From: a virus
DNA length: 64,000 nucleotides
IMG/VR virus record: IMGVR_UViG_3300016476_001289
Strand: one strand, 5' to 3'
Below the pieces are notes generated by a model that did no database searches, was not told the origin of the DNA, and saw only the letters and a list, made by a program, of their open reading frames with translations. Positions 398 through 31,943 of the stretch are shown here, in pieces (within the stretch, counting starts at the first letter, position 1; the number at the start of each line of letters is the position of its first letter). The position numbers and the translations under genes are program-made.

Positions 398-645
398 CCT
401 ATACTCATTATATGTTTTAGGTGGAGTTTTTAAATCAGGTGAAAATGTTTATATATTTCAATAACTTACACGATTCGCCGCGCCACATAATATGTAGAAA
501 TCTAAGGTGATATAAAAGGCTATTATGTAGAAATCTTGCATAGGGTCCGCATACTTTCACCCCACTTCCACCCCCACCCCTAGATTTCTACATATTAAAA
601 GGCTAGATTTCTTCACAGGGGGTCCGCATACTTTTAGATTTCTTT
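398..645. repeat. Cassette junction: promoter-like arm (minus strand), box A copies and box B copies
   Basis: Box A at 492, 525 (fwd), 580, 603, ~634 (rev); box B at 543 and 620. Confidence 0.9.
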
Positions 646-654
646 CTCCTACCA

Positions 655-696
655 CAAAAAAAAACAACTCGATAAAGAGAAGCTTCTCTTTATCGA
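655..696 (-). terminator. Intrinsic terminator with a perfect 28-bp palindrome
   Basis: TCGATAAAGAGAAGCTTCTCTTTATCGA (669-696) followed on minus strand by a T-run. Confidence 0.8.
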
Positions 697-1059
697 TTAG
701 GTTCTTTCAATAAATTTAGCAGTGAAAATCTCATTTTCAATTTTAACTTTATAATAATTTGAATATTGAAAATCATGATAATACTTTTTGCCGTCAATTA
801 CTTCCCAGGTTTTATCGATAAAAAGTATAAATTCAACATTGATTAAATGGGTATTAAGATAAACTTCAGCATTTAAATCATAGTCTTTTATTCTAAAAGT
901 AATATCTTGACATTTTTCAATCTCTTCATGAAATTTATTTTCTAATGAATGATGAATCTCTTGATAAACACTTTCAATCATAAAATCATCATGATTTTTT
1001 TCAATCATTCTCTTTATAAAGCCTCGCATACCTATTTCGTATCTTAACTCTCTAATCAT
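697..1059 (-). CDS. Hypothetical cassette cargo protein
   Basis: Track ORF 697..1077; start moved to ATG 1059 after GAAAGGATTTAAAGCT. Confidence 0.75.
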   Translation of the reverse strand: MIRELRYEIGMRGFIKRMIEKNHDDFMIESVYQEIHHSLENKFHEEIEKCQDITFRIKDYDLNAEVYLNTHLINVEFILFIDKTWEVIDGKKYYHDFQYSNYYKVKIENEIFTAKFIERT

Positions 1060-1094
1060 AGCTTTAAATCCTTTCATTGATTTATTTGTTAATT

Positions 1095-1494
1095 GCTATA
1101 CTCATTATATGTTTTAGGTGAGATTTTTAATATAGGTGAAAATGTTTATATATATCAATAACTTACACGATTCCCACATCCTGATAATATGTAGAAATCT
1201 AAAAGGATAAAATGTAGAAATCTAGGTGAAACCCCTATAATGTCCGCATACTTATCACCCCACCCTAGATTTCTACATATAAAGCCATAAGGATATTTTA
1301 TTCACCCAAATACATGGTCCGCATACTTTCACCATACTCGCCCTAGATTTCTACATTTTAGGGTATTTCTAATATTCACCTAGACCCCTTAGATTTCTAC
1401 ATATTATCAGTATATGTAAATCTCGTAAGTGATTAAAATGTATAGCTTTTTTTACCTACATTAAAATTATCACCTAAAACATATATTGAGTATA
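1095..1494. repeat. Bidirectional hub (type I): inverted promoter arms around box A/box B core
   Basis: Box A fwd 1189, 1212, rev 1265, 1343, 1389; box B ~1242, ~1316; arms ending CACCTAAAACATATA(A/T)TGAGTATA on both strands. Confidence 0.9.
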
Positions 1495-1556
1495 ACTTAA
1501 CAACATAGATGATTGTTAAGTCTTTTAACATAGCTTAACATAAAGGATATAATGCT

Positions 1557-2057
1557 ATGACAAGTTTCAATAAAACTCAATTTCTTTCTCAATTTGCTTC
1601 TTTTACTCCTAAAAATGAATGGGAAGAAAAATTTAGTAAATCTCTTCACCGACAAGTAGAAAAGTATGGTAAAGAGTTATCTGAAAAACAAATTGAATGT
1701 TGGACAAAATTAATTGCTCCTAAGACTCAAGTTAAGGTAGAATCTTTATCTGAAACTGCTTTAAGTGAATTAACAAAAGCAAATAATGTTCTTGTTTATG
1801 CTACTGAAGTTAAAGATATTGAATTTGCTAAAAGCTTAAAATCTCAAATTTTAGAAGGTAAAGAACTTAGCTCAAAACAAGCTTATTTCTTAGGATTAAT
1901 TGAGAAAAGAGTAAGCCCAAAGGTTGAAGCTCCTAAGGTTGAAACTGCTAAAGCTCCTAAGACTGCTAAAGCTAAGGTTGAAGCTCCTAAGGTTGAAGCT
2001 CCTAAGACTGCTAAAACTGCTAAAGCTAAAAAAGAAGTAAAAACATTACCATTCTAA
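1557..2057 (+). CDS. Two-repeat LSEKQ-type helical protein with Lys/Ala/Pro tail; paralog of 29939..30394
   Basis: Two F(S/A)KSL..Q...GKELS.KQ repeats; PKVEAPKTAK tail. Confidence 0.85.
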   Translation: MTSFNKTQFLSQFASFTPKNEWEEKFSKSLHRQVEKYGKELSEKQIECWTKLIAPKTQVKVESLSETALSELTKANNVLVYATEVKDIEFAKSLKSQILEGKELSSKQAYFLGLIEKRVSPKVEAPKVETAKAPKTAKAKVEAPKVEAPKTAKTAKAKKEVKTLPF

Positions 2058-2066
2058 TTAGCTTGT

Positions 2067-2226
2067 CTTAACTAGCTTATTGACTTAATTGTCTTTAAGC
2101 TAGTTAAGGTTTTTTTTTGTTTAGGAAGCAAGAAGTCTATCCTACCCCCTAGCAGATAAAGAAATCTAGCCTTTAATATGTAGAAATCTAGGGTGGTAAA
2201 TAAATTGATATTTTTGTATGCGACCC
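2067..2226 (+). terminator. Terminator hairpin, T-run and cassette end (box A x2, box B variant)
   Basis: 13-bp stem 2067-2079/2096-2108, T-run, AGAAATCTAG 2160, ATGTAGAAATCTAG 2178, GTATGCGACCCC ~2216. Confidence 0.85.
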
Positions 2227-2799
2227 CTATAGACATACTTTATAGGTGGGTTTAGGTAATAGCTTAATAATATCTATCACATCTAAATTATCTATAATCC
2301 TAACTCTACCATCCTGAACACTCCCATCCTTAAATGAAGGGATTAAATCACCCATAGTCTTAGGTTGATAGACATCAAAAATATCTTTAGGGATTTTAAA
2401 TTCAGTAGGAACACTTGTCTTTTCAGCTAAGATATAATCTGGATCTAAATAAGCTAATACTTCACCTTTAACAGCAAAGATAAAAGGATCTGTTAAATTG
2501 GATCTATCTTTTAAACCTAAGCTATCAGATAAAACTTTAACCACATGGGTGATAACATTAGATTTTCCTCTTAATCTTTGGTGAAGTATAATATATTCAC
2601 CTTGAGTTTCTTTAAACTTATTAGGACAATGTGAATAAATATTACCTGTAGGTAAATTGACACCTAAAGAGATAGGTGTCAATAAAGAACTTTTTGTTTT
2701 AGGTTTAGAATGTATAGAACATAAACCATCTTTTTCTTGGTGAAGATATCCAAACTTATTAGGATTCTCCTGATGATTAATTAACTTATGATAGATCAT
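2227..2799 (-). CDS. Hypothetical protein
   Basis: 190-aa ORF with AAGGAG RBS. Confidence 0.7.
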   Translation of the reverse strand: MIYHKLINHQENPNKFGYLHQEKDGLCSIHSKPKTKSSLLTPISLGVNLPTGNIYSHCPNKFKETQGEYIILHQRLRGKSNVITHVVKVLSDSLGLKDRSNLTDPFIFAVKGEVLAYLDPDYILAEKTSVPTEFKIPKDIFDVYQPKTMGDLIPSFKDGSVQDGRVRIIDNLDVIDIIKLLPKPTYKVCL

Positions 2800-2935
2800 A
2801 TAAACTCCTTATAGGTGAATAAAGATAAACCATATTATATTATTCACTTATAAGGCAGTATCTTCACCTTAAGATTATCACCTATAAGATTCACCTATAG
2901 GATTAGTCTATAATAATATAATATTATAGTCAGTA

Positions 2936-3056
2936 CATAATACTATTATAGACTATATAATATACTAAGAAGAATATAATACTATTATAGACTATAATAT
3001 ACTTAAAAGACATAATACTATTATAGTCTATAATACACCTAAGAGAAACATAATAT
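2936..3056. repeat. AT-rich ~35-40-bp tandem repeats with palindromic core TATTATAG-N-CTATAATA
   Basis: Cores at 2944 (imperfect), 2983-2999, 3019-3035, upstream of a multi-HTH gene. Confidence 0.8.
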
Positions 3057-3117
3057 CTTATATACTGTTAGTCCTATATTTCCTATAATATAGTCCTATA
3101 AGGAGAAAGGACTCATT

Positions 3118-4248
3118 ATGTTAGATAAAGAAAAATTAGAAGAACTATTTAATCAATTCACCATTAAAGATATTAGTGGAATACTTAATACTAGTCCAGC
3201 TAATGTTAGAAAACATATTAAAATCTATGATCTAAAAAAACCTATCAGAGATAAAAACAAAAAAGCAATAGATCCTAATCTTATTCATTCTCTCTTTAAT
3301 GAAGGTAAATCTATAGTCCTTATAGCTAAAGAACTTAATGCTAGTTATGACTGTATAGCTAACTTCCTTAAACCATCTAAAATTAAAAACTCTAAATACT
3401 CCACCTTAAAAGTTTTATATGCCACCCAAAAGAAGTCTATTCCTGAAATTTCTAAAATTCTAAATATATCACCCACCACCATCTGGAGATGGATAAAGAG
3501 ATATAATTTACAAAGACACTCACCTATAACTAAACCCACCCTACAAGACCTGTATCTAAATAAAAAACTACCTATTTACCAAATAGCTAAAAAACTTAAT
3601 ATCCCTATTGATGATGTCTCCATAGCTATTAAAAACTATGACCTGAAAAACACCCACCCTCAAATCTCTAAAGAACAAATATTAAACTTTTACCCCGCCT
3701 TGTCTCTTAAAGAAACTTCTTCTATTTTAAATATCCCTATAACACACTTTATGAAACTCTTATCCTCCTATAATATACCTATAAGAAAAAAAGGTAAAAC
3801 ACCTATAACCATATCCCAAGAGGTCTTATCTGATTTATACATCACCCAAAATAAATCAATAGATGCCATCTCTACTATACTTAAAGTAAGCGATAAAGTT
3901 ATTAGACAGAGAATTAAACTCTATGGTCTTATTAAACACTCTAAAGCAACTAAAAATAAAGTCTTATCTATCTCTAAAAGAGAACTTGAAAACCTTTACT
4001 CTTTTGAAGGTATCAAAGCTGTCTGTTCTAAATTTAATGTCACTCTTAAAGCTGTTAAAGATGCCCTAGATAAATATGGTATTCTCCACAATAGTAATAA
4101 ACTCCCTAAAGAAAGAATTATAGACCTATATGTAAATACCTATGCTGTATATAAAGCACATATAGCTATTGATGAAATAGCTAAAGAACTTAATCTATCA
4201 AGAAGAGAAATTACAGAGTTTATAAGATATAATAAAATTAAAAGATAG
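3118..4248 (+). CDS. Multi-helix-turn-helix repeat DNA-binding protein
   Basis: About 8 repeats of L..LY...KSI.EI.K.LN.S...I...IK.Y.L. Confidence 0.8.
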   Translation: MLDKEKLEELFNQFTIKDISGILNTSPANVRKHIKIYDLKKPIRDKNKKAIDPNLIHSLFNEGKSIVLIAKELNASYDCIANFLKPSKIKNSKYSTLKVLYATQKKSIPEISKILNISPTTIWRWIKRYNLQRHSPITKPTLQDLYLNKKLPIYQIAKKLNIPIDDVSIAIKNYDLKNTHPQISKEQILNFYPALSLKETSSILNIPITHFMKLLSSYNIPIRKKGKTPITISQEVLSDLYITQNKSIDAISTILKVSDKVIRQRIKLYGLIKHSKATKNKVLSISKRELENLYSFEGIKAVCSKFNVTLKAVKDALDKYGILHNSNKLPKERIIDLYVNTYAVYKAHIAIDEIAKELNLSRREITEFIRYNKIKR

Positions 4249-4288
4249 GTATTATATATAGCCCACTCATATTAGAATAAGGATATAT

Positions 4289-4540
4289 ATGCTATATACT
4301 GAACCTGAATTAGAAGATATTGATATTAATGAAGATGAAGATATAATTTTCATCTTACATAAAGGTGGAGACTTTTCTATTATTCCACCTGAAGATGAAG
4401 ATAAAGTTTCCCATATACAAGTATTACTACTAGAACAAATATTAGTATCTGTAAGACCTTCTATATTTTTATTGATCGCCCTTAAAACAGAAATTGCTTT
4501 TGTAAAGTTATGGAACTGGATTGTAAATAGAGATTCTTGA
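4289..4540 (+). CDS. Small protein of the EPSW-like family (see 20803, 21350)
   Basis: Aligns by eye with 20803..21012 and the C-terminus of 21350..21928. Confidence 0.7.
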   Translation: MLYTEPELEDIDINEDEDIIFILHKGGDFSIIPPEDEDKVSHIQVLLLEQILVSVRPSIFLLIALKTEIAFVKLWNWIVNRDS

Positions 4541-4601
4541 CATTTACATTTATGGTATTATATATAACCAAACTTCACCCTATATATAGGAGATTATATA
4601 A

Positions 4602-4862
4602 ATGAGCATTATTAAGCCCCTTAGAGATTCCGTTCTCATTAAAAAAGACACACCTGATGTAAAAACCGCTAGTGGTTTATATATCCCTGCTACAAGTAAT
4701 ACTAATCAAACCACAGGCACTGTTGTTGCCGTTGGTAAAGATGTTAAAGAAATTAGTGTTAATGACACCGTTGTGTTCCTATCCCCTGGTATTGAACTCA
4801 CCCAAGATAATCAAAAAGTTTATCTTATGAGTGAAACAGATATTCTCGCTATACTTGGATAA
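4602..4862 (+). CDS. groES: Co-chaperonin GroES
   Basis: IKPLRDSVLI, mobile loop KTASGLYIP, GTVVAVG, ETDILAIL. Confidence 0.92.
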   Translation: MSIIKPLRDSVLIKKDTPDVKTASGLYIPATSNTNQTTGTVVAVGKDVKEISVNDTVVFLSPGIELTQDNQKVYLMSETDILAILG

Positions 4863-4864
4863 CC

Positions 4865-6701
<1,837 letters not shown>

Positions 6702-6705
6702 AATA

Positions 6706-7254
6706 CTAAATAGTGGTTTGAGATAATGTATATTTAACACCGAAGTGTAAAGATTTACCACCTGGTCTAGACCCTTTCTTTAAGGTGCTTTTTTTAGCCC
6801 ATAAGAATTGATCTGTTTCACCATCATTAGAAACCAAGTTCCATTTTTCTTTTTGATCTAATGTAATATCAGCTATAAAAGTAATATATCTAAAACCACA
6901 ATCTTCATATTCAGTTTTCTTAATGATTTGAGCATTATTGAATTTAGGTGGTAAAGAACCACATTCTTCTTTAACTTCTTTTCTAGCTGTTCTTAAAAAT
7001 ATAGTGTCATTAGTAATAGGATCATCTATAGGTGTATCATTCCAATCTTCACCACCTAACCCACCACCTGCAATCCCCCATGTGTTAGGTTGATCTACCC
7101 AGGATGCTCTTAAAAGAAGTAATACGGTATCGTCTTCAGAACAGATAAACATCATACCTGCTCCTCCCTTACCCCAATATTGTTTTTTCTTACATTTAGC
7201 AAATAAAGACTTTGCTATCCTATTTAAGATCTTAGATTTCTTATTGTCTAACAT
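6706..7254 (-). CDS. NUDIX hydrolase
   Basis: GAG..F, WGIAGGG...TARKEVKEECG Nudix box with insertion. Confidence 0.85.
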   Translation of the reverse strand: MLDNKKSKILNRIAKSLFAKCKKKQYWGKGGAGMMFICSEDDTVLLLLRASWVDQPNTWGIAGGGLGGEDWNDTPIDDPITNDTIFLRTARKEVKEECGSLPPKFNNAQIIKKTEYEDCGFRYITFIADITLDQKEKWNLVSNDGETDQFLWAKKSTLKKGSRPGGKSLHFGVKYTLSQTTI

Positions 7255-7299
7255 ATTAATATCTCTCCCTTATGTTTCTTTACACATAAGAAAGAGATA

Positions 7300-8214
7300 T
7301 TATAAAGATATTAATTGCTCTGCTAAACTTAATACATCCTTAGACCAGTATTGTGAAGGTCTAGGTTTAGATGTAGTACCTACAATAGCTTCACAAGTAG
7401 TAATACTATCTATCCATTGTTTAGGTAGAGATTTAAGACCATAAACAGCACCAAATAAAGCACCTAAGATCGCACTATGGGTATCCGCATCACCCCCTTT
7501 TCTTATAGTTATATCTAGTGCCTTAACTATATCTCCTGTATGATATAGGTGATACATAGCATTCTGAATACCTACAAGACAAGTGCCTTTAAACATATTA
7601 GTAGGTGCTTTAGTTTTAGCTTGTATTAAAGTTTCTCTTACCTTAGGTATAGTCGCCCAATCTACCATTTGTTGAAATAAATCTTTAGGTGCTATATCTG
7701 ATCTAATAGCAAGACTAATAGCCCTAGCATATATACTATTTACTTCAAAGACAATATCATTTTCATGAGTACATTCAGCATCAGCAATAGCTAATGCACC
7801 TACTATATCTAAGTCTTTATTTACACCATATATACCTATAGGGGCAATTCTCATAAGAGCACCATTAGATATAGATTCAGGGTTATACAAGTCATGCCAT
7901 AAAGCATTACTTGTAGTAGTGCCTATATCAAAAGGCTTACTCTCAGACCAATCTTTATAAGCATTTAAGACATTAGTGTAATTAAACTCTTTATCTCTAA
8001 TAAGAGTCCTAGCAAGAGTGATAGCAAGTTCACCATCATCAGTAGGTTGACCTGCTCTTAAATCAAAAGTGCCACCTCTATTTATTAGATCTTTAAACCC
8101 TTTAGGGTAAAGAGATTTTACAATATCAGGTGATTGAAATTCAACTAATGCACCTAAGTTATCACCTGCAATTAAACCTGCAAAGCAACCTTGAGCTTTT
8201 TCTAATACATTCAT
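7300..8214 (-). CDS. ADP-ribosylglycohydrolase (DraG/ARH family)
   Basis: GDNLGALVEF, GQPTDDGE, SNGALMRIAP, GGDADT motifs. Confidence 0.95.
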   Translation of the reverse strand: MNVLEKAQGCFAGLIAGDNLGALVEFQSPDIVKSLYPKGFKDLINRGGTFDLRAGQPTDDGELAITLARTLIRDKEFNYTNVLNAYKDWSESKPFDIGTTTSNALWHDLYNPESISNGALMRIAPIGIYGVNKDLDIVGALAIADAECTHENDIVFEVNSIYARAISLAIRSDIAPKDLFQQMVDWATIPKVRETLIQAKTKAPTNMFKGTCLVGIQNAMYHLYHTGDIVKALDITIRKGGDADTHSAILGALFGAVYGLKSLPKQWIDSITTCEAIVGTTSKPRPSQYWSKDVLSLAEQLISL

Positions 8215-11912: not shown

Positions 11913-11924
11913 TTAAATCCTTTC

Positions 11925-23466: not shown

Positions 23467-23520
23467 ATTCAAATCTCCTTAAGTCTATCATACCATAATA
23501 ACAGATAAACCCTAGTGTCA

Positions 23521-23592: not shown

Positions 23593-23892
23593 TTATTTAT
23601 CATCAGCAAAGTTATGTGTAGTAGATATTTGTAAATATCTAGGATGATAGAACCAAGCTAAATCTCTATTCATAGGATTATCATAAATCTGAAAGAAATA
23701 ATGAAATTTCTCACCTTGATATTCAATCTCAAAGCTACCTTTATTAAGGTTGAAATTTTGACATGATAGCTTGTATCCAATCAAAAGAGTGGTTCTGTCT
23801 TGTGGTAATTCTAAAAGGATAATATCCTTTTTTAATTTTGCTTTTTGGGTTTTATTCATTGAGGGGCAGTTGATTTTAATACTCATAGTCAT
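23593..23892 (-). CDS. Hypothetical cassette cargo protein
   Basis: RBS GAAAGGAAAAAGCTATG after promoter arm. Confidence 0.75.
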   Translation of the reverse strand: MTMSIKINCPSMNKTQKAKLKKDIILLELPQDRTTLLIGYKLSCQNFNLNKGSFEIEYQGEKFHYFFQIYDNPMNRDLAWFYHPRYLQISTTHNFADDK

Positions 23893-23919
23893 AGCTTTTT
23901 CCTTTCATTTATTGTTAAT

Positions 23920-24345
23920 TGCTATACTTAATATATGTTTTAGATATTGATTTTAGTATAGGTGAAAAAGCTTAGGTATTTCAATCACTTATGAGATTAA
24001 AAAACTAGGATAAAATGTAGAAATCTAAGCACTATTAGGCTAATATGTAGAAATCTAGGTGAAAGGGTAAAAAGGGTCCGCATACAAAATTTTAGGTTTG
24101 TTTTGGCAATTTTGGCTTCACCTAGATTTCTACATATAACCTTATCCTGAGTTGCTAGGAAAAAGGTCAAAAATAGGTAAAAAGGGTCCGCATACTTTTT
24201 TTGGCTTCACCTAGATTTCTACATATTATCCACACCCTAGATTTCTACATTTTATCCTAATGGGTGAATTCCCTAAGTATCTAAAACCCTTAAATTTTCT
24301 TATTTTAGTGAAAAAAACCCTTAAAAACATAGAATAAGTATAGCA
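23920..24345. repeat. Bidirectional hub (type I)
   Basis: Box A fwd 24015, 24045, rev 24122, 24211, 24237; box B ~24074, ~24184. Confidence 0.9.
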
Positions 24346-24372
24346 AATAACAATAAATGAAAGGATTTAGCT

Positions 24373-24621
24373 ATGAATTTTCAAGACTTGATTAAAGAAC
24401 TTGCGTTATTAGGATATTTTGAACTTGATTTATCTCTTAAAGATAATATGATTCACTTCAATAATAATGATGAATTATTTATCAATGATGAATTATCTCT
24501 ATATGAAGTTAATCATGAAGGTAGAAGATTTGAATTATGTATAGTCGAATCTGTGGATGATGTGATTTTCTATATTGAAGAAAATCAATTTACCCCTGAT
24601 TCTTCCGACTGCCCAAATTAA
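24373..24621 (+). CDS. Small acidic cassette cargo protein, paralog of 31589..31831
   Basis: MNF..L.KEL.LLG.FE...LC..ESVDDV..Y.E. Confidence 0.8.
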   Translation: MNFQDLIKELALLGYFELDLSLKDNMIHFNNNDELFINDELSLYEVNHEGRRFELCIVESVDDVIFYIEENQFTPDSSDCPN

Positions 24622-24623
24622 AT

Positions 24624-24860
24624 CCTAGCTTTTTGCTAGGTTGGGTTTTTTTTTGTGATTGAAGCAAGAAATCTAGTCTTTATTTTGTAGAAATCTAGGT
24701 GAAGTGGGTGATGTTAAGAAAAAGTATGCGGACCCCTATGGTATTCCACCCTAGATTTCTACAAAATATCCAAATCCCCAAATCCCATAAGTGATTGAAA
24801 TATCTAAGCTTTTTCACCTATGTTAAAACCATCACTTAAAACATATATTAAGTATAGCAA
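24624..24860 (+). repeat. Tandem cassette junction: terminator, box A x2, box B, inverted box A, promoter arm
   Basis: Hairpin 24624-24640; box A 24667, 24685; box B 24724; rev box A 24751; arm ~24787-24857. Confidence 0.9.
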
Positions 24861-24881
24861 TAACAAAACAAAGGATAAAAA

Positions 24882-25424
24882 ATGATTGACTTCACTAAAT
24901 ACAATTTTTCAAAATTCTATGATCTTGTAGTAGGAAAAAATAAAGCTAAGAGGGTAGAAAAGAAAAAGAAATTCATTGAGACTTATGGTGGTAATGAAGA
25001 AGTTATACGAACCCTTATTCAAAAAGTAGGTATCTATGAAGTATACAAGTATATTGCGCCTCATAATCCTATATTCAAAGATTATGAGCTTGTGAAAAAG
25101 TGTTTAAAGAAAGAGGTACTCTTTTTCAAGAAAATTCCAGTGAAATATAGAACTGAAGAACTTGTGTTGATATTCATGAAGTATGAGATGAAATATGACA
25201 TGAATTACAAGGGAATTGAAAAATCAATCAATAGTAAATTTCAATATCTCCTTGAGTCTAAATGGTGGAAAAAATATGTTGAAGAAAATATCAAGCTTCA
25301 ACAAAAAGAAAAAGATATGAAAATTTGGTGGCGAGAGAATAGTAAAAAGTATTCATCGGAAGATAGTGCAATTACAGCACTTGAAAGAAAATTTGGGAAG
25401 ATGAAAGACTACTTTGAGATTTAG
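24882..25424 (+). CDS. Basic hypothetical cassette cargo protein, possible single DUF4116-like repeat
   Basis: AAGGA RBS; FKDYELVKKCLK...KIP.KYRTEEL. Confidence 0.75.
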   Translation: MIDFTKYNFSKFYDLVVGKNKAKRVEKKKKFIETYGGNEEVIRTLIQKVGIYEVYKYIAPHNPIFKDYELVKKCLKKEVLFFKKIPVKYRTEELVLIFMKYEMKYDMNYKGIEKSINSKFQYLLESKWWKKYVEENIKLQQKEKDMKIWWRENSKKYSSEDSAITALERKFGKMKDYFEI

Positions 25425-25431
25425 GTTGGGC

Positions 25432-25532
25432 GTTGCCTTTACGGCAACAAAGATTTTTTTTGTGTAGGAAGCAAGAAGTCTATGGGTGGGCTAGGCAAGT
25501 AGAAATCTAGCCCTTATTTTGTAGAAATCTAG
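25432..25532 (+). terminator. Cassette end: hairpin, T-run, GGAAGCAAGAAGTCTA, box A x2
   Basis: GTTGCC/GGCAAC stem; box A at 25499 and 25519. Confidence 0.8.
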
Positions 25533-25765
25533 GGTGAATATCCTATATAGACATTATTTGTATTTAACCAAGTTGGTTTAGGTAGTGTTCTAGCTGTGTA
25601 TAAAGCAACTGATTGTCTTATGTTAAGAGGACTGATATAGAAACCTAATCCTTTAATTTCTTTTTTAGGGTGGGCAGGTGAAAAAGTAGATGAGAATAAA
25701 CCTATATTTTGAACTGAGTGAAAAATATTATTCCCATGACAATAAAAGAAAGGTGGGTTATTCAT
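25529..25765 (-). CDS. Small RSLPK..W.N family, member 6
   Basis: FFYC..NNIFH...RTLPKPTWLNTNNVYIG. Confidence 0.75.
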   Translation of the reverse strand: MNNPPFFYCHGNNIFHSVQNIGLFSSTFSPAHPKKEIKGLGFYISPLNIRQSVALYTARTLPKPTWLNTNNVYIGYSP

Positions 25766-25766
25766 A

Positions 25767-25997
25767 TTATCTTCCTATATAGACATTATCTGTGTTTTGC
25801 CAATTTGATTTAACTAAAGACCTTACACTATATAAGGCTATTGATCTTCTCATAGCTATGTTATCCATAGGTATATAATACCCCATACCTTTTATTTCAC
25901 CTCTACTTAAATGACCTGCTGAGGTAGATGAGAAGAAATTGGTGAACTGTATAGCTTGAAAGATATTATTAGCATTACAATTAAAAAAGAAGATCAT
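25767..25997 (-). CDS. Small RSLPK..W.N family, member 5
   Basis: RRSIALYSVRSLVKSNWQNTDNVYIGR. Confidence 0.75.
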   Translation of the reverse strand: MIFFFNCNANNIFQAIQFTNFFSSTSAGHLSRGEIKGMGYYIPMDNIAMRRSIALYSVRSLVKSNWQNTDNVYIGR

Positions 25998-26248
25998 TTA
26001 TCTTCTCTTCCTATATAGACATCATTAGAATTTTGCCAATTAGCTTTAGGTAAAGACCTGATACAAAACATAGCAACTGACCTTCTAAGGTTTTCTATAT
26101 TGTTCTCATATATAAGGACACCTTTACCTTTTATTCTATTATCTTTATGTTGCATGGTATGGGTAGAGAAGATACTTGTATATTGTTTAGCATGAAATAT
26201 ATCATTATTCTCATAATAGACAGAGAAGATAGCTTTATCATAGAACAT
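25994..26248 (-). CDS. Small RSLPK..W.N family, member 4
   Basis: RRSVAMFCIRSLPKANWQNSNDVYIGRE. Confidence 0.75.
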   Translation of the reverse strand: MFYDKAIFSVYYENNDIFHAKQYTSIFSTHTMQHKDNRIKGKGVLIYENNIENLRRSVAMFCIRSLPKANWQNSNDVYIGREDK

Positions 26249-26253
26249 AGGTT

Positions 26254-26499
26254 TTATTCTCTTCCTATATAGACATCATTAGAGTTTATCCAATTAGCTT
26301 TAGGTAAAGACCTAACACTAAATAAAACTATTGACCGTCTTATATTTTCTAAAGGTTCTTTATACATAAAGATGCCACCTAAATAAGTTTGATATTTAGG
26401 TTTAGAAGTATAATTTAAAGATAAAAAGCAAGTTTCTTGTTGTGCTTTAAAGATATTATTATTAGAACAGAAAAAGAAAGCTATCGGTTGAATATCCAT
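26254..26499 (-). CDS. Small RSLPK..W.N family, member 3
   Basis: RRSIVLFSVRSLPKANWINSNDVYIGRE. Confidence 0.75.
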   Translation of the reverse strand: MDIQPIAFFFCSNNNIFKAQQETCFLSLNYTSKPKYQTYLGGIFMYKEPLENIRRSIVLFSVRSLPKANWINSNDVYIGRE

Positions 26500-26501
26500 A
26501 G

Positions 26502-26741
26502 TTAATTCTCTCTTCCTAAGAAGACATTATTAGTATTCATCCAAGTATGAATAGGTAAAGACCTGATACTATAAACCACTATACTCTTTCTTAAAATATC
26601 TTGATCCACAAAAATAGCACTACTTTTTGATCTATTATTTGTTCTTAAAGAGTATTCAGAAGATAAAACACAAGTTTTTACTTTCCCATGAAAAAGATCA
26701 TTAGAATCACAAAGTAAAAAAAAGAAGGTGTAGTTATTCAT
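26502..26741 (-). CDS. Small RSLPK..W.N family, member 2
   Basis: RKSIVVYSIRSLPIHTWMNTNNVFLGRE. Confidence 0.75.
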   Translation of the reverse strand: MNNYTFFFLLCDSNDLFHGKVKTCVLSSEYSLRTNNRSKSSAIFVDQDILRKSIVVYSIRSLPIHTWMNTNNVFLGREN

Positions 26742-26744
26742 TTT

Positions 26745-26951
26745 CTATTCCTTATAAAAGACATCACAATTATTTACCCATGTGTGTTTAGGTAATGACC
26801 TAACACTAAATAATACTATACTCCGTCTCATAGATTCTTTACTTAAGGGTATCCCATGATTTATGGAACTATTACTTGATAGAAAACAACTATGTCTTAT
26901 AAAGACACTATGGTAGATGTCATTCCCTATAAAGAAAAAGTATCCTATCAT
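26745..26951 (-). CDS. Small RSLPK..W.N family, member 1
   Basis: RRSIVLFSVRSLPKHTWVNNCDVF. Confidence 0.75.
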   Translation of the reverse strand: MIGYFFFIGNDIYHSVFIRHSCFLSSNSSINHGIPLSKESMRRSIVLFSVRSLPKHTWVNNCDVFYKE

Positions 26952-28480
26952 TCTTTTAAAAACCCATGTTCATAAACACCAGGTCTTAACTTATCTCCTA
27001 GTGCCTTATGTAAATCCTTTAACACCTTAAAGTCGTCCTTATACTCAATTTCCCAAAACCCCTTTAACTGATACCACCCACAATCCCAACAAGTTAATTG
27101 TAATTCAGGATTTGCCAAAGCATAGGCTTCTCTTGTATCTAAGGACTTAACCCATAAGTTAGTAGCATGGACTAATAAATCCTCAGCTTCTTTACTAAGT
27201 GTAAGTTCCCCAATTAAGGTCGCCACATAAGACTCTTCATAATGTTTTTCAAAATCTTCATACAATAAAGGACACTTCTCTTTTAATAAGCCTTTAATGC
27301 CATATCTCTCTAACCAAAAGAAATGATTTTTAATTTGCCAAATTTCGCCACCCCAAGAGACATCTCTCATACTTGTACAATTATTCTTTGTCTCAAAGAT
27401 ACTATATATATGACAATCATCTACCCACTGTTCATAACCTTCTTTTAATTCAGAAGGTTGTATATAAGTCCCATTCTCATCTAACCACTTTTGTGTAAAA
27501 GGAATTATAGGGTGATCTATATATGGGATTTCTTTAGGTGGGGCTTTCTTAATAGGTCCTGTCTTTTCTCTTTCTTTAATCTTTAAGCCACTTGTCATAA
27601 TAGGGTATTCATAAACCTCCATGCCTTCAATAGGTTCTCTCACCCATTCACTAGCTGACTTATGGTTATCGCAGTTATAAATTTGTTTCCACCCTACATG
27701 ACTAGCATCTAGTTCTCTAATAGAGAGAATAGGTTCTTCAGTATTTTCACCTTCAGACCATATAGTAAAGCCTACACCCCATTCAGAAGAAACACCTGAG
27801 AAAGCACTAGCATTAAAGAAGAATCCTTGTTGGAATTTAAAATCTCTATAATACCATTTACGGAATTTTTGAGCTGTCTCTTGGATCATGAATTTAATAG
27901 GTGAGAATAGACAGATAGAAACTTTAGTATAACCGAAGTTCCTAGCTTGTCTTACGGCTTCAAAGATAAATTGAAAGTATAAATTAGAGCGACAAGCACC
28001 TACCATAGACATAAGGTTCTTCACCTTAGTCTCAGACACACCTTCTTTATTTTCTTCATCGTCAGCTAAAGTACCTGCTGCGGCATAAGGAGGGTTCATA
28101 AAGAATACAAGTCTCTTATCTGTATTCTTAGATAAGAGATTAAAGGCATATTCCGATAAAGGATTCTCATAAGAGAATAGGTCTAGGTCAGGGTTAAGGA
28201 AGTCATATTTAAAAGCATTGGTATAACCTTGTTTAACGAGTAGGTCTACTTCAGGTTGTTCGAGTGTAGAGATAATGAGATTTTTAAAATCATATTCTCT
28301 TGTTAAGTTACCTGACCCTGCACAACAATCCCATACGACACATTCATCTTTCCAGTTTTCACCTAAGACTTTGGTGGTGAGTTTATGTGCTTCATCTACC
28401 CATAATTTAGGGGTGAAGAAAGCACCTTGTCTAGTTCTAATTTCATTTACTATGGTTTGATCATAATTTTCAATCTTCAT
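26948..28480 (-). CDS. Amino (N6-adenine type) DNA methyltransferase, orphan
   Basis: GAFFTP, VWDCCAGSGNL (motif I), MNPPY (motif IV). Confidence 0.85.
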   Translation of the reverse strand: MKIENYDQTIVNEIRTRQGAFFTPKLWVDEAHKLTTKVLGENWKDECVVWDCCAGSGNLTREYDFKNLIISTLEQPEVDLLVKQGYTNAFKYDFLNPDLDLFSYENPLSEYAFNLLSKNTDKRLVFFMNPPYAAAGTLADDEENKEGVSETKVKNLMSMVGACRSNLYFQFIFEAVRQARNFGYTKVSICLFSPIKFMIQETAQKFRKWYYRDFKFQQGFFFNASAFSGVSSEWGVGFTIWSEGENTEEPILSIRELDASHVGWKQIYNCDNHKSASEWVREPIEGMEVYEYPIMTSGLKIKEREKTGPIKKAPPKEIPYIDHPIIPFTQKWLDENGTYIQPSELKEGYEQWVDDCHIYSIFETKNNCTSMRDVSWGGEIWQIKNHFFWLERYGIKGLLKEKCPLLYEDFEKHYEESYVATLIGELTLSKEAEDLLVHATNLWVKSLDTREAYALANPELQLTCWDCGWYQLKGFWEIEYKDDFKVLKDLHKALGDKLRPGVYEHGFLKE

Positions 28481-28735
28481 AAAGTTCCTTTTCTCTTATA
28501 TAGAAGAATATCTATAATGTTCTTCTATTATATTATACATAATACTTATATATCTTTATAATTACTTAGTACTGAGTATTAGAATATAGTCTTATAAGTA
28601 GATTCCACCTATATCTATTCTCACCTATATATTATTCACCTATATATCTTATATAAAATATTTTTAGAAACCCTATATGTGTTGGATAATATAAAATATC
28701 ATTTATGACCTTTATAACTTTTGGAGTAAAAGATA

Positions 28736-28936
28736 ATGTACGATTCTTTATCTGAGAATAGATTATATTTCCATGATCTCACCGAAGATACTTATGTTCA
28801 AGTATCAAGAGATTTTTTTGATGTTGTCCGTCTTCACTATATACAAAAAGAAGATATTGTTAAAACCCAAACATATAAGTATGAAGAGTTCTCTGAAGAT
28901 GTATTCAATAAATTTATCTCAGAGATTTGTAGCTAA
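28736..28936 (+). CDS. Hypothetical protein
   Basis: GGAG RBS, 66 aa. Confidence 0.55.
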   Translation: MYDSLSENRLYFHDLTEDTYVQVSRDFFDVVRLHYIQKEDIVKTQTYKYEEFSEDVFNKFISEICS

Positions 28937-29353
28937 ACATATTTGTATATCTATATCATCTAACTTATCTAAGTGTTTTATCATTAAACTTTTTACATCT
29001 TCCCAATTTAAACCACCACGACCACACCCTAATTTAGGAAATGCTATTGAGTCTATTCCTAATCCCTTATAGGTCTTTACAAAATGTTCTAATCCCTTAT
29101 CTATATAAGATAAACTAGATCCTGATTTCCAATGTCTCTTAGTAGGGAAGTTATATACTTCACCATATAGATAAGGTTCACCTATTTTAAACTCTTCTCT
29201 CATACACCTATGATAATAATCTTTATACATATCAGGGTATCTAGTTTTAAATTCTAAGGCTATACCTATTCCCATTACACCTACAATATTAACAGCATTA
29301 ACTAAAACTTTAGCATCTGTTTCAAATACATTTTTATCAGTAAAGAAAAGCAT
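28919..29353 (-). CDS. Macrodomain protein, DarG-like
   Basis: LVNAVNIVGVMGIGIALEFK, NFPTKRHW, SIAFPKLGCGRGGLNW. Confidence 0.92.
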   Translation of the reverse strand: MLFFTDKNVFETDAKVLVNAVNIVGVMGIGIALEFKTRYPDMYKDYYHRCMREEFKIGEPYLYGEVYNFPTKRHWKSGSSLSYIDKGLEHFVKTYKGLGIDSIAFPKLGCGRGGLNWEDVKSLMIKHLDKLDDIDIQICLATNL

Positions 29354-29408
29354 AGATTTCTACTTTCGAGAATAAAAAAAACATCACATCAGCTACAAGA
29401 GATTTATC

Positions 29409-29738
29409 TTATAGGATAAATCCCTTGCAACCGATGATATTACCACTAGCATCTCTTAAAGTATCAGGAGCAAGTAAATCTTTACGACCTACTTTCTTAC
29501 CTGCTTCAAGGACGATTAAGCTAACAATATAAAACACATTATCTTGGGGCGCAGGTAAATCAACTATCTCACCTAAGATACTCATTTTTAATGGTATTAA
29601 GATACCATCTAAATCAAGAGTAGGTAAATCGAGATTTGTTTGATTCACACGAGGCAAGATACCACTCTTTTCAAAAGTAGTGGTAGTTCCATTATAGATC
29701 AGGTGAACATCATGGGGTGTTGCATTAATGATTTGCAT
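29409..29738 (-). CDS. Conserved phage-type protein (N.TPH family)
   Basis: IINATPH, LPAP..NVFYIVS, R.DLLAP, RD..G.IIGC; start moved from 29783. Confidence 0.75.
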   Translation of the reverse strand: MQIINATPHDVHLIYNGTTTTFEKSGILPRVNQTNLDLPTLDLDGILIPLKMSILGEIVDLPAPQDNVFYIVSLIVLEAGKKVGRKDLLAPDTLRDASGNIIGCKGFIL

Positions 29739-29751
29739 TTTAAGTCCTTTC

Positions 29752-29946
29752 TTATTTGTTGTTTTTGTTTTTGAGTGAAGCAATTACTTTGTCATCATAA
29801 GCATTAGCAAAGCTATGAATAGATTTAGCTTTAATGCCATAATCTAAAAGATCAAAATCTTTGAAAGATAAAGATCTTTTTGTATTAGTGGTTTTAGGTG
29901 TTCTAAAAATTTTTCCTTTTGGGAAGGTGTTGTAAGTCTTAGACAT
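29752..29946 (-). CDS. Small basic hypothetical protein
   Basis: FRTPKT...AYDD; overlaps upstream stop. Confidence 0.6.
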   Translation of the reverse strand: MSKTYNTFPKGKIFRTPKTTNTKRSLSFKDFDLLDYGIKAKSIHSFANAYDDKVIASLKNKNNK

Positions 29947-30394
29947 TTTTTTCCTTTGTGGTTTTGGTTTTAGGTGTCTTAGGTGCTTTAGCAGTCTTGG
30001 GTGCTTCTTCTACTTTGGGTGCTTCAACTTTAGGTGATACTCTTTTCTCAATCAATCCTAAGAAATAAGCTTGTTTTGAGCTAAGTTCTTTACCTTCTAA
30101 AATTTGAGATTTGAGTGATTTAGCAAATTCAATATCTTTGACTTCAGTAGCATACACTAAAACATTATTAGCCTTAGTTAATAATCCTAATGAATCATCA
30201 CTTAAAGTCTCTACCTTGACTTGAGTCTTAGGTGATACAAGCTTATTCCAGCATTGTAATTGCTTTTCGGATAGCTCTTTACCTTGCTTTTCTACTTGTT
30301 TATGTAGACTCTTGCTAAATTTCTCTTCCCATTCATTAGATGGTTTAAAAGAAGAGAATTGATTGAGAAATTGTGTTTTATTGAAACTTGTCAT
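29939..30394 (-). CDS. LSEKQ-repeat protein, close paralog of 1557..2057
   Basis: Long identical stretches, e.g. TKANNVLVYATEVKDIEFAKSLKSQILEGKELSSKQAYFLGLIEKRVSPKVEAPK. Confidence 0.85.
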   Translation of the reverse strand: MTSFNKTQFLNQFSSFKPSNEWEEKFSKSLHKQVEKQGKELSEKQLQCWNKLVSPKTQVKVETLSDDSLGLLTKANNVLVYATEVKDIEFAKSLKSQILEGKELSSKQAYFLGLIEKRVSPKVEAPKVEEAPKTAKAPKTPKTKTTKEKNV

Positions 30395-30477
30395 AGCGTT
30401 TTATCCTTTATGTTATGCTATGTTAAAAGACTTATCAATCATCTATGTTGATAAGTTTAAGAGTTTATCTTTATCTC

Positions 30478-30871
30478 TTATACTACTTGTATGTTTTAGG
30501 TGATAATTTTAACACAGGTGAAAAAGCTTATATATATCAATAGGTTGTAGAATATGCTCACTTGGATATTATGTAGAAATCTAGGAATTTTAAAAACTAG
30601 GCTATTATGTAGAAATCTAGGTGAAAATAGATAGGGGGTTCGCATACTTTTTTCACCCACCCTAGATTTCTACATATTAATGTGGCATCACCTTAATATG
30701 GGGTCCGCATACTTTCACCCAAATTCTTTTAGATTTCTACATTTTAGGGTATTATCTCGTCACCCTAGATTTCTACATATTATCAAGATACCTAAATCGC
30801 CTAAGTTATTGATATATATAAGCTTTTTCACTTATGTTAAAAATATTACCTAAAACATATATTGAGTATAA
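30478..30871. repeat. Bidirectional hub (type I)
   Basis: Box A fwd 30571, 30607, rev 30662, 30729, 30765; box B ~30636, 30701; same layout as 1095-1494. Confidence 0.9.
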
Positions 30872-30949
30872 GAGATAAAGATAAGCTCTTATGCTTAACA
30901 ACATTGATGATTGTTAAGCTCAACATAGCAAAACAAAGGATTTAAAGCT

Positions 30950-31246
30950 ATGAAATTTAGAAAAGATAATTTTGATAATACCTCTTGCGATTTACCTAGA
31001 ATCGAAACACCTAGCAATGAAACAGAGCAAGTCTTAAAAAGCGTTGATTTTGGTGTTTTTAGAACCGACAAAGAAACTCACTACCTTCATAATGGTTTAG
31101 GTTGTCAAGTGATTCATTGTCGATATGGGTATTTAGTAAGAGATTTTATTCAATATACCGGGCAAGTTAAGCGCCCTGCTCTTCATACTATTGAGAAGCT
31201 TCTTGAGGCACTTGATGATGCTAGAACTTGGAAAAATTGGAAGTAA
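30950..31246 (+). CDS. Hypothetical cassette cargo protein
   Basis: RBS AAAGGATTTAAAGCTATG. Confidence 0.75.
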   Translation: MKFRKDNFDNTSCDLPRIETPSNETEQVLKSVDFGVFRTDKETHYLHNGLGCQVIHCRYGYLVRDFIQYTGQVKRPALHTIEKLLEALDDARTWKNWK

Positions 31247-31274
31247 TAAGCTTCTTATCGTGGATTGAGTTTTG

Positions 31275-31550
31275 AGATAACTAATTGACTTAATTGTCTT
31301 TTAGTTATCTTGTCTTTTTTTTGTGGTAGGAGAAAGAAATCTAGCCTTTATTTTGTAGAAATCTAGGGTGGGGTGAAAAACCCAAATTTTTGTATGCGGA
31401 CCCCCCCTATGGTATTTCACCCTAGATTTCTACAAAATAAAGGCTAGATTTCTACATAATAGCCCAATACTCAAATCCTGTAAGTAATTGAAATATCTAA
31501 GATTTTTCACCTGATTTAAAAACTTCACCTAAAACATATATTAAGTATAG
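31275..31550 (+). repeat. Tandem cassette junction: terminator, box A x2, box B, inverted box A x2, promoter arm
   Basis: Hairpin 31275-31310; box A 31335, 31353; box B 31392; rev box A 31422, 31444; arm ~31480-31550. Confidence 0.9.
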
Positions 31551-31588
31551 GAAATAGCAAATAACAAAAATCATGAAAGGATTTAGCT

Positions 31589-31831
31589 ATGAATTTTGAT
31601 AGTTTAGTTAAAGAACTTACCTTGCTCGGTCTCTTTGAGGATGAATTATATATCCAAGATAATGTAATTCACTTTAAGAATCACTATTTAGAGATTCATT
31701 CAGACCTTTCACTATTCCAAGTTGAAGTTTATGAATACCTAAATGAGCTTAACCCAAGTGGTAAGCTTCAGTTATGCACTATTGAAAGTGTTGATGATGT
31801 TCTTTACTATATGGAAGATGATGATGAATAA
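31589..31831 (+). CDS. Small acidic cassette cargo protein, paralog of 24373..24621
   Basis: RBS GAAAGGATTTAGCTATG; ESVDDV motif. Confidence 0.8.
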   Translation: MNFDSLVKELTLLGLFEDELYIQDNVIHFKNHYLEIHSDLSLFQVEVYEYLNELNPSGKLQLCTIESVDDVLYYMEDDDE

Positions 31832-31832
31832 A

Positions 31833-31943
31833 GTATGCGACCTAGCTTTTAGCTAGGTTGTGTTTTTTTTGTTTAGGAAGCAAGAAGTCTATTACACCCC
31901 CTAGCAGATAAAGAAATCTAGCCTCTATTATGTAGAAATCTAA
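31833..31943 (+). terminator. Cassette end, near-identical to 2110-2191
   Basis: T-run, GTTTAGGAAGCAAGAAGTCTAT...CCCCCTAGCAGATAAAGAAATCTAGCCT..ATGTAGAAATCTA. Confidence 0.85.

Follow-up and report, generated by a model that had tools for sequence, protein, structure and literature searches.

A repeated frame of probable promoter and terminator, probably also a recombination substrate, around small genes of an uncultured freshwater huge phage

The genomes of huge phages include hundreds of small genes with no known function, and the ways in which such genes are expressed or exchanged are poorly understood. In one uncultured freshwater huge phage, many small non-structural genes share a repeated sequence frame. 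Why would such genes sit between nearly the same flanks, enclosed by inverted copies of one short box? We address this question in a 64,000-nucleotide stretch, hereafter the window, of IMG/VR record IMGVR_UViG_3300016476_001289, part of a 372-kb genome. A preliminary description had offered two answers: a gene-capture or shuffling system, or a phage-specific regulon scaffold. We propose that the frame is probably the standard layout of transcription units in one clade of uncultured huge phages from freshwater, combined with homologous recombination between its arms of the kind known from PeSLs (promoter-early stem-loops).

Two motifs recur throughout the window. Box A (CTAGATTTCTACA, 13 bases) occurs at 37 sites, compared with 0.21 expected, and box B (GGGTCCGCATAC) at 14 sites, compared with 0.02 expected (at most one mismatch, 64-kb window). 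The recurrence first described is thus real and far above expectation. The same grammar is carried by more than 100 freshwater metagenome contigs, and more than 450 distinct box A sites are present across the sampled contigs. The small units of the window are as follows.

1-538, minus strand: u1, with a 42-aa ORF (232-360), a 46-aa ORF (92-232) and more past the window edge; 5' arm 361-538, with box A at 493-505 and 526-538
640-1225, minus strand: u2, with its terminator at about 640-696, ORF 697-1059 and 5' arm 1060-1225, with box A at 1190-1202 and 1213-1225
1343-2191, plus strand: u3, with 5' arm 1343-1556 (including a 5'-UTR hairpin), ORF 1557-2057 and 3' arm 2058-2191
23470-24058, minus strand: u6, with 3' arm 23470-23592 (second box decayed), ORF 23593-23892 and 5' arm 23893-24058
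24211-24698, plus strand: u7, with 5' arm 24211-24372, ORF 24373-24621 and 3' arm 24622-24698
24724-25532, plus strand: u8 with its preceding box B (24724-24735, minus orientation), 5' arm 24751-24881 with a single A, ORF 24882-25424 and 3' arm 25425-25532, directly adjoining a converging operon at that operon's 3' end
29353-30620, minus strand: u9, with ORFs 29409-29783, 29752-29946 and 29939-30394, 5' arm 30395-30620 and, at the 3' end, one A core (29353-29363) and a terminator with a 20-bp stem (about 29389-29434)
30729-31366, plus strand: u10, with 5' arm 30729-30949 (including a 5'-UTR hairpin), ORF 30950-31246 and 3' arm 31247-31366
31392-31943, plus strand: u11 with its preceding box B (31392-31403, minus orientation), 5' arm 31422-31588, ORF 31589-31831 and 3' arm 31832-31943

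The 5' arms align to one common geometry. Two A boxes, both pointing along transcription and usually 22-25 bp apart, are followed by 24-25 bp, an IHF-consensus-like box, 37 bp and AAAACATA. A- and T-tracts precede AAAACATA, and a short leader then leads to AAGGA..GCTATG, so that the composite of putative promoter and stem-loop terminator reaches as far as the following gene's Shine-Dalgarno sequence and start codon. The single layout claimed for nine units holds in all nine, and the estimate of at least nine is borne out by a tally of 13 arms in the window. Four of these 13 form a second class, in two divergent regions with mirror symmetry (14939-15399 and 39678-40166), the second of which falls beyond the span that the preliminary description covered (398-31943). 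In a set of 93 distinct arms, drawn from the window and from relatives, the start of box A is 85-89 bp upstream of AAAACATA; 71 of these arms also have an IHF-consensus match (at most one mismatch) 50-51 bp upstream of AAAACATA, compared with 5% of random windows. A -35 element (TTGAAA/TTGATA) is another possible identity for the IHF-like box. The arms show no sigma-70 -35/-10 pair that could be assigned consistently; promoter-like matches in them do not exceed shuffles, for a consensus that may not be the host's, and the hexamer downstream of AAAACA varies between arms.

The 3' end is equally regular. All eight small cassettes share a hairpin, T8, 12 nt, a truncated A (AGAAATCTAGCC), 22 nt and a full inverted A, with hairpin folding energies of -9 to -31 kcal/mol. 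Two box A copies at the 3' end, as initially described, are usual, but the first copy is truncated, the second has decayed in u6, and u9 has only one. The 3' flanks of u3 and u11 (2110-2191 and 31862-31943, about 82 bp) had been called near-identical around unrelated ORFs; they are about 93% identical by eye, and the ORFs are indeed unrelated. We also observe 3' A pairs adjoining genes without a promoter.

Between units, the boxes form composite junctions. Among 161 distinct junctions, the commonest composite patterns have A- on the left, B in the center and A+ on the right. The modules below carry no strand of their own.

493-631: junction module 1, A- A- B+ A+ A'+ B+, with box B at 543-554 and 620-631; its A+ pair (580-615) is the u2 3' arm
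1190-1401: junction module 2, divergent between u2 and u3, A- A- B A+ B A+ A+
24016-24249: divergent u6/u7 module, A- A- B+ A+ B+ A+ A+
30572-30777: divergent u9/u10 module, A- A- B+ A+ B+ A+ A+
14939-15399: class II mirror-symmetric divergent module, arm(-), A- A-, B+ ... B-, A+ A+, arm(+)
39678-40166: second class II mirror-symmetric divergent module, with the orthologous module aligned in 12 relatives

The first class II module heads operons starting at 14938 (minus strand) and 15400 (plus strand) and aligns to relatives in both orientations. The second is flanked by an AAA_5/VWA operon (38607-39677, minus strand) and an operon starting at 40167. Box B does lie between units, as had been described, but single B-like copies also occur within operons and at 45145-45156.

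Conservation separates the boxes from their surroundings. In 12 orthologous intergenic modules, mean pairwise identity is 0.98-1.00 for box A, 0.95-0.97 for box B and 0.84-0.98 for AAAACATA, versus 0.54 for the remaining columns. Since A and B are near-invariant against this background, the sites are under selection. Most likely, to judge from this pattern, both are bound by sequence-specific protein. The suggestion of a phage-specific regulon scaffold is well supported by the fixed geometry and by the near-invariance of A, B and AAAACATA in orthologous modules of diverged relatives.

Under the proposed frame, each unit would begin with a 5' arm comprising the A pair, the IHF-like box and AAAACATA as a putative phage-type promoter core. 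Small cassettes would close with an intrinsic terminator followed by the inverted truncated and full A, with B between units. Proteins binding A and B would mark unit boundaries and control the activity, and presumably the timing, of a phage-type promoter class. This predicted succession of site pair, bend site and promoter resembles the layout of enhancer-dependent promoters. Promoters of the sigma-54 type, such as nifH, Pu and glnHp2, combine upstream activator sites with an IHF bend. The arms similarly have an activator-type site pair about 95-135 bp upstream of the likely start, with an IHF-like box between and fixed spacing throughout. They differ in that the GG-N10-GC (-24/-12) element is absent from the aligned arms, and in that the sites recur, inverted, behind terminators.

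A more specific version, which we put forward only tentatively, is that the A-/B/A+ junctions are protein-bound boundary elements, with one protein on the A pairs and a second factor on B. The A-bound protein, of phage or host origin, would activate upstream through the bend site and, directly behind each terminator, would double as a polar roadblock or loop anchor. Every cassette might then be an insulated, plug-in expression socket. In eukaryotic rDNA repeats, TTF-I/Reb1 "Sal box" sites are found at both T0 and T1-10. By analogy, each unit here has one and the same short box both ahead of its promoter and directly past its terminator, and polymerases entering a junction from either side would meet the same box face. 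The rDNA repeats, however, belong to another domain of life, and intrinsic terminators are already present here. We know of no combined promoter-and-terminator boundary factor in bacteria or phages. A candidate binder is encoded in the window.

8215-8910, minus strand: protein with five tandem helix-turn-helix (HTH) modules, from an operon with a putative box-A promoter

Orthologues of this protein are present in box-A contigs; none was found in IMG/VR, nor in the box-free relative G001.

Almost all cargo genes are ORFans. Nine of ten cassette ORFs lack a PHROG match, and for none of the ten does a Pfam match reach the family cut-off. First ORFs (n = 97) fall into at least 25 families. That the cargo is unrelated from unit to unit, as first described, is mostly correct; the exceptions are two paralogous pairs, u3 (1557-2057) with u9a (29939-30394), and u7 with u11. 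The u3 protein has an N-terminal domain followed by a Lys/Ala/Pro-rich tail, and the 46-aa ORF of u1 is conserved in five relatives (L102, L021, L054, L044 and L004). The arms of u1 and u2 are 90% identical around unrelated cargo; the arms of u7 and u11 are only 76% identical around paralogous cargo. Judged by these similarities, the histories of arm and cargo disagree. The same frame also heads long, conserved, syntenic operons.

Cassette order, orientation and presence differ among relatives. To this extent the shuffling suggested earlier is supported, in a weaker sense, but the single mapped crossover lies in an arm and not in box A or B. The u2 cassette is missing from relative L021, where both of its flanks correspond to a single arm that they share; the loss is explained by recombination between a pair of directly repeated arms. 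In relative L071, a copy of u7 with 98% amino acid identity lies upstream of u9. Up to window position 30484, the L071 sequence follows the u9 context, agreeing at 111 of 115 positions; beyond it, the sequence follows the u8 context. The result is a chimeric arm whose parents are the u8 and u9 5' arms. This arrangement fits what a 5.6-kb inversion between inverted arms would produce. The crossover (at about 30484) sits within the promoter arm at a distance of about 90 bp from box A, a location that points to homologous recombination between repeated arms, as in PeSLs, and not to a dedicated recombinase. Relative L102 supplies a mosaic junction: junction module 1 is about 97% identical to L102 as far as the u2 terminator, and identity then falls to 31% (amino acid) within the 3' arm, the L102 ORF in the u2 slot being 31% identical over 64 aa.

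Neighbor conservation is 31% across box-A junctions versus 62% for the comparison (anchor identity 70-90%), a difference confounded by fast-evolving cargo and redundant contigs. Among pairs at least 88% identical, module rearrangements account for one of 27 events, namely the L071 inversion; most of the 27 are single-gene indels within operons, at direct repeats of 10-44 bp. Most recent indels in the clade thus lie outside the modules, and recent gene turnover has therefore proceeded mainly by other routes. This location of the indels, at short microhomologies, would suit a purely regulatory repeat, made up only of promoter and terminator signals, with rearrangements as the ordinary background of a plastic phage region. 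That the framework drives conserved syntenic operons would suit it too. We nevertheless consider this reading unlikely, because it leaves aside the chimeric L071 arm, the L021 deletion between direct-repeat arms, the discord between arm and cargo, and a loss of synteny about twice as frequent at A junctions. Together, these indicate that the repeats serve as crossover substrates.

The opposite reading, a dedicated mobile-cassette system, would make A and B the sites of a site-specific recombinase or transposase encoded elsewhere in the genome, which captures and moves the cassettes; attC sites of integrons and the multi-site ends of Mu and Tn7 would be the models. Small cassettes bracketed by inverted pairs of one 13-bp box do recall the paired transposase-binding sites of transposon ends, and relatives do differ in cassette order and presence. 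Yet the mapped crossover and the L021 deletion are both accounted for by the arms, the spacing of the A boxes to promoter and terminator elements is constant, and these boxes also flank long conserved operons that stay put. A domain scan of about 50 larger ORFs in the window finds no recombinase or transposase catalytic domain, with HTH-only matches, in agreement with the earlier statement that no recombinase is visible there. Target duplications were not found, and short contigs show no terminal overlap or circular signature (weak evidence in itself). We therefore regard this reading as very improbable. Nothing supports the dedicated gene-capture system initially entertained: each cassette has its own promoter, no catalytic domain was detected in the scanned ORFs, and most recent indels are outside the modules.

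Integrons and Mu- or Tn7-type transposons resemble the frame in that repeated sites enclose small single-gene units, with an inverted pair of sites at either end. An integron would have an IntI-type tyrosine recombinase, attI and promoterless cassettes that end in attC; a Mu/Tn7-type transposon would have a transposase, target duplications and breakpoints precisely at the outer end of its terminal sites. The cassettes here differ in carrying their own promoter and terminator, and in a crossover within the arm and not the box. An integron was rejected because every cassette has its own promoter arm and the scanned window ORFs contain no integrase domain; a Mu/Tn7-type transposon was rejected because of the distance between crossover and box A and the lack of a transposase catalytic domain in the scanned ORFs.

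The closest parallel is offered by the PeSLs of T4-type phages, which are about 50-70 bp long, contain an early promoter of sigma-70 consensus, and recombine homologously to delete, replace or reorder genes between close relatives (Arbiol et al. 2010, PMC2839356; Comeau et al. 2014, PMC4122927). In both systems, a repeated promoter and terminator composite extends up to the Shine-Dalgarno sequence and start codon, mostly precedes small ORFans in plastic regions, and recombines between copies; such recombination accounts for the L021 deletion, the L071 chimera and inversion, and the L102 mosaic break. The frame described here is longer (100-250 bp), its core AAAACATA lacks a clear -35/-10 pair, and it also drives long conserved operons. 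It has additional near-invariant boxes: the upstream A pair, the inverted A pair behind the terminator, box B, and the IHF-like box at fixed spacing. What is new relative to PeSLs is this A/B boundary grammar. In the proposed frame, arms of this length, present in many copies and both orientations, would be a substrate for ordinary homologous recombination, and cassettes would be deleted, inverted, moved and re-paired as a by-product.

The frame provides a sequence-readable marker of one expression class across a whole uncultured clade, and its short invariant sites (A, B and AAAACATA) can be used as bait for the regulator and for the polymerase specificity factor. It also extends the PeSL principle, under which repeats with a regulatory role serve at the same time for recombination, to a much more elaborate module in a lineage distant from the T4-type phages. 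Should the boxes turn out to be boundary or insulator sites, they would represent a new kind of transcription-unit organization in bacterial viruses.

One related element stands apart from the units.

45058-45160, no strand assigned: stray element in a non-coding stretch, with a degenerate A (CCCTTAGATTTCTTTAC) followed by the B-like copy at 45145-45156 (minus orientation)

The pairing of a degenerate A with a B-like copy in this non-coding element (45.06-45.16 kb) could be taken to indicate a role in replication or packaging, in which iteron-like A pairs, an IHF-like site and AT-rich DNA form multiple origins, primosome sites or packaging sites. Direct repeats 22-25 bp apart, beside an IHF-like box in AT-rich DNA, also recall plasmid origins. 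We find such a role extremely improbable, since the elements always point at a gene downstream whose Shine-Dalgarno sequence and ATG are close by, and are paired with intrinsic terminators at 3' ends. They occur at least 11 times in 40 kb, which fits transcription units and not origins.

All nine transcription units for which the preliminary description proposed one layout do follow it, and four further arms lie at the divergent, mirror-symmetric regions 14939-15399 and 39678-40166 (class II modules). Box A (CTAGATTTCTACA, at most one mismatch) is found 37 times in the window against 0.21 expected, and box B (GGGTCCGCATAC) 14 times against 0.02 expected. Eleven intergenic modules, located between 0.4 and 40.1 kb, hold all but a few of these copies. 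The cassettes discussed individually are:

1-538 (-), cassette u1
640-1225 (-), cassette u2
1343-2191 (+), cassette u3
24211-24698 (+), cassette u7
24724-25532 (+), cassette u8
29353-30620 (-), cassette u9, with ORF u9a at 29939-30394
30729-31366 (+), cassette u10
31392-31943 (+), cassette u11

Alignment of the thirteen arms needs no large gaps between the boxes and the start codon. Each runs from a distal to a proximal box A, then through 24-25 bp, TAAGTnATTGAWAT, 37 bp, AAAACATA and a leader to AAGGA..GCTATG. Across the clade, the two A boxes mostly start 22-25 bp apart (mode, 25), and in a set of 93 distinct arms, drawn from the window and from related contigs, AAAACATA lies 85-89 bp downstream of the box A start. 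Two classes of arm can be distinguished:

Class I: TTTTCACCT ... TCACCTAAAACATATAT ... AGTATAG, in front of small cassettes
Class II: GACTCAAAACATAG, with a GC-rich spacer behind box A, in front of long operons

Of the 93 arms, 71 match the integration host factor (IHF) consensus YAANNNNTTGATW at 50-51 bp before AAAACATA (16 exactly and 55 with one mismatch), compared with 5% of random windows. This IHF-like box could instead be a -35 element, since it contains TTGAAA or TTGATA; a signature search of the window and loci found no HU/IHF gene. Apart from AAAACATA, conservation is confined to a T-tract (24-28 nt upstream of it) and an A-tract (9-13 nt upstream). AAAACA is followed by a hexamer that begins with TA and is otherwise variable, and matches to the consensus sigma-70 promoter are not enriched. 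We therefore read the core as a putative phage-type promoter.

A hairpin, CTTAWCAACAT.GATGATTGWTAAG, is also common to the leaders of u3, u9 and u10 (1493-1559, 30392-30480 (-) and 30867-30952), and one of its pairs shows a compensatory change between copies. In the same leaders, a 6-bp CATAGC/GCTATG pairing would cover the start codon. Together, these structures could form a translational control element.

At the other end, one 3' arm is common to all eight class I cassettes: a hairpin (folding energy, -9 to -31 kcal/mol), T8, about 12 nt (GTGnnAGGAAGCA), a truncated box A (AGAAATCTAGCC), 22 nt and a full inverted box A. Terminator-like sites are enriched (12 versus 3.2 expected). The 3' A pairs at about 2157-2191, 25498-25532 and about 31909-31943 adjoin converging genes that have no promoter arm, and at the junction beside the 2227-like gene the A boxes are retained in relatives despite different neighboring cargo. 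Thus, the 3' pairs are not merely upstream sites of a neighboring promoter. Their fixed distance behind intrinsic terminators suggests a boundary role, possibly as roadblock, loop anchor or insulator.

Every junction in the window obeys one rule: left A copies are minus-oriented, right A copies are plus-oriented and B is central. The commonest composite patterns among 161 distinct junctions of the clade follow the same A-/B/A+ rule, the most frequent being A-A-(A-)B+B-A+A+. The same face of box A would thus meet polymerase coming from either side. The repeats might alternatively serve replication or packaging; with the copies arranged around promoter arms and terminators, we give that role the slimmest of chances.

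More than 118 metagenome stretches are among the matches listed for the box A pair pattern. About 90 of these have a GC content of about 31% and the same grammar, many with box B too, and their source record names suggest freshwater samples. Pooled across the clade, box A is cTAGATTTCTACAT.tTAt (453 distinct instances) and box B is ggGGTCCGCATa (133 distinct instances). The strongest evidence for conservation comes from an orthologous class II module that separates the AAA_5 gene from its divergent neighbor; 12 distinct relatives were compared, with flanking genes about 72-80% identical.

Mean pairwise identity of elements in orthologous class II modules.
Four A boxes: 0.98-1.00
Two B boxes: 0.95-0.97
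AAAACATA: 0.84-0.98
IHF-like boxes: about 0.75
Remaining columns: 0.54

This excess of box over background identity within orthologous DNA indicates site-specific purifying selection rather than concerted evolution of repeats.

The cargo is far more varied. Cassette ORFs encode 42-180 amino acids and almost none has a family match; a protein atlas returned nothing usable for u3. Behind such arms, 97 distinct first ORFs fall into at least 25 families. The proposal that the shared frame carries unrelated ORFs holds for u1 and u2, whose arms are 90% identical, and for u8 and u11, whose arms are 85% identical. It does not extend to u3 and u9a, which are paralogues with a Lys/Ala/Pro-rich tail, or to u7 and u11, which are also paralogues behind arms only 76% identical. 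Similarity of arms does not track similarity of cargo.

Related contigs reveal rearrangements. The u2 cassette is missing from contig L021, and window 1-595 and 1056-2843 both align to overlapping L021 DNA, the arrangement expected had the direct-repeat arms of u1 and u2 recombined with each other. Contig L071 is 92% identical to window 28930-30583 and carries u7 (98% amino acid identity) directly upstream of u9. Recombination of the u8 arm with the inverted u9 arm would invert 5.6 kb and produce this order. As far as window 30484, 111 of 115 positions in L071 agree with the u9 context; beyond about 100 bp of ambiguous shared arm, agreement is with the u7-u8 junction, at 29 of 30 and 58 of 70 positions. 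Discriminating positions place this switch some 90 bp from box A, beside the core promoter, so that the breakpoints at box A or B expected in the preliminary description were not borne out for L071. In contig L102, identity of about 97% spans A, A, B, A, A' and B and ends at the terminator of slot 2. An unrelated cargo swap in that slot is ruled out, as its ORF is 31% identical to that of the window over 64 amino acids; the difference is a mosaic breakpoint within a 3' arm. In three further contigs (L084, L089 and L080), the GroEL-like gene adjoins the lyase gene, with the cassettes located on the opposite side of this gene pair.

Gene neighbors are conserved less often across box A junctions than elsewhere (70% versus 84%, 31% versus 62% and 18% versus 41% in three identity bands), a comparison confounded by fast-evolving cargo and redundant contigs. 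Among 27 events in locus pairs at least 88% identical, one, the L071 inversion, is a module rearrangement. The majority are single-gene indels within operons, flanked by direct repeats of 10-44 bp. Many such intra-operon indels, with overlaps of 10-44 bp at the junctions, are seen between L003 and L072, L014 and L068, L004 and L084, and L068 and L094. They form a second route of gene turnover, which relies on microhomology and is independent of the box modules.

We consider it likely that the frame is a regulon scaffold in which A and B are bound by protein and the arms recombine by general homologous recombination. Boxes A and B would serve as binding sites for protein, and the arm as a promoter dependent on an activator or a phage factor. 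General homologous recombination is feasible between repeated arms of this length and would account for the L021 deletion, the L071 inversion and the mosaic junction in L102. A dedicated recombination system could also give such products; with the L071 switch away from box A, we regard it as highly improbable. A frame that is regulatory only would suit the single module rearrangement among 27 events, and is unlikely in view of the L021 deletion and the L071 inversion.

Two proteins consist of helix-turn-helix (HTH) modules and nothing else, and a third weakly resembles a sigma factor:

8215-8910 (-), five tandem three-helix HTH modules of about 45 amino acids each
3118-4248 (+), eight tandem HTH modules of about 45 amino acids each
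48919-49497 (+), 192-amino-acid protein directly after the clamp-loader genes

The five-HTH gene lies in an operon driven by a box A promoter. Its predicted structure (mean pLDDT, 77.5) consists of 15 helices grouped as five triplets; its low pTM is what a beads-on-a-string arrangement would give. Conservation is highest in modules 3 and 5. Orthologues 31-99% identical are located in box A contigs, and none was found in IMG/VR or in G001, the complete 316-kb genome of the nearest IMG/VR lineage. The protein has no sequence match in PDB and no significant Foldseek match. Co-occurrence within one clade makes it a tentative candidate for the box binder. The eight-HTH protein is a poor one: it is about 53% identical between relatives, in which adjacent genes are 84-99% identical, a rate of change too high for a reader of the invariant box A. 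Separately, the 192-amino-acid protein matches Sigma70_r4 weakly (E 7.7e-4, below the family cut-off) and could be a phage sigma-like factor.

The nearest known system is the promoter-early stem-loop (PeSL) cassettes of T4-type phages (PMC2839356, PMC4122927), which are alike in principle, in association with ORFans and in the outcome of recombination. In contrast to PeSLs, the module described here is larger and strictly spaced, has a non-consensus core promoter, carries extra invariant boxes at both unit ends and between units, and serves conserved operons too. Enhancer-dependent promoters share the geometry of site pair, bend site and core, but the arms have no -24/-12 element. The A/B boundary grammar is new. 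Rfam gave no match, and literature searches with the motif strings returned solely unrelated primers.

The window (31% GC, with densely packed short ORFs) encodes GroEL and a second, divergent GroEL-like protein, a DnaX-type clamp loader, an Eco57I-type methylase, macro, ADP-ribosylglycohydrolase and NUDIX proteins, and tail-fiber-like proteins of 1400-1600 amino acids. There is no cultured relative in the GenBank phage collection, where DNA searches with 1-8000 and 23000-32000 (near mode) and with the class II module (distant mode) gave no match. Scanning IMG/VR for the box A pair pattern returned 0 matches. Two IMG/VR relatives, reached via a 510-amino-acid protein, have neither A nor B and use a different repeated promoter element. 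G001 has 0 box A sites and is too distant to test which proteins co-occur with box A, as most are absent or 30-55% identical. A prokaryote genome scan gave two matches (50-60% GC, without B), which we attribute to chance and which offer no clue to the host.

The 510-amino-acid protein (26948-28480 (-)) has no Pfam or PHROG match. It is 79% identical in G001, compared with 30-55% for most proteins common to both, and is either unusually constrained or recently exchanged. In non-coding DNA upstream of its operon (28597-28650), CACCTATAT occurs three times in the same orientation at 17-18-bp intervals; CACCT recurs in class I arms and beside boxes A and B. A non-coding element at 45058-45160 contains a degenerate box A preceded by CCACCCCACCC, plus a box B-like copy. 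Single box B-like copies (GGGGTTCGCAT) without box A also occur between genes within operons (9930, 12637, 16105 and others), close to adjacent stop and start codons.

Several paralogue families are arranged in tandem. One comprises seven proteins of about 64-84 amino acids, six of them in tandem (20608-20802 and 25529-26951 (-)), and further sets lie at 33431-36457 (four genes) and 17350-20173. An eight-member family has one member at 11427-11917 and the others in an array at 16531-20611. The former, a 161-amino-acid gene, is absent from contig L103 (97-99% identical), and the indel is flanked by a 9-bp repeat, CCTTTCTTA, in the ribosome-binding-site region.
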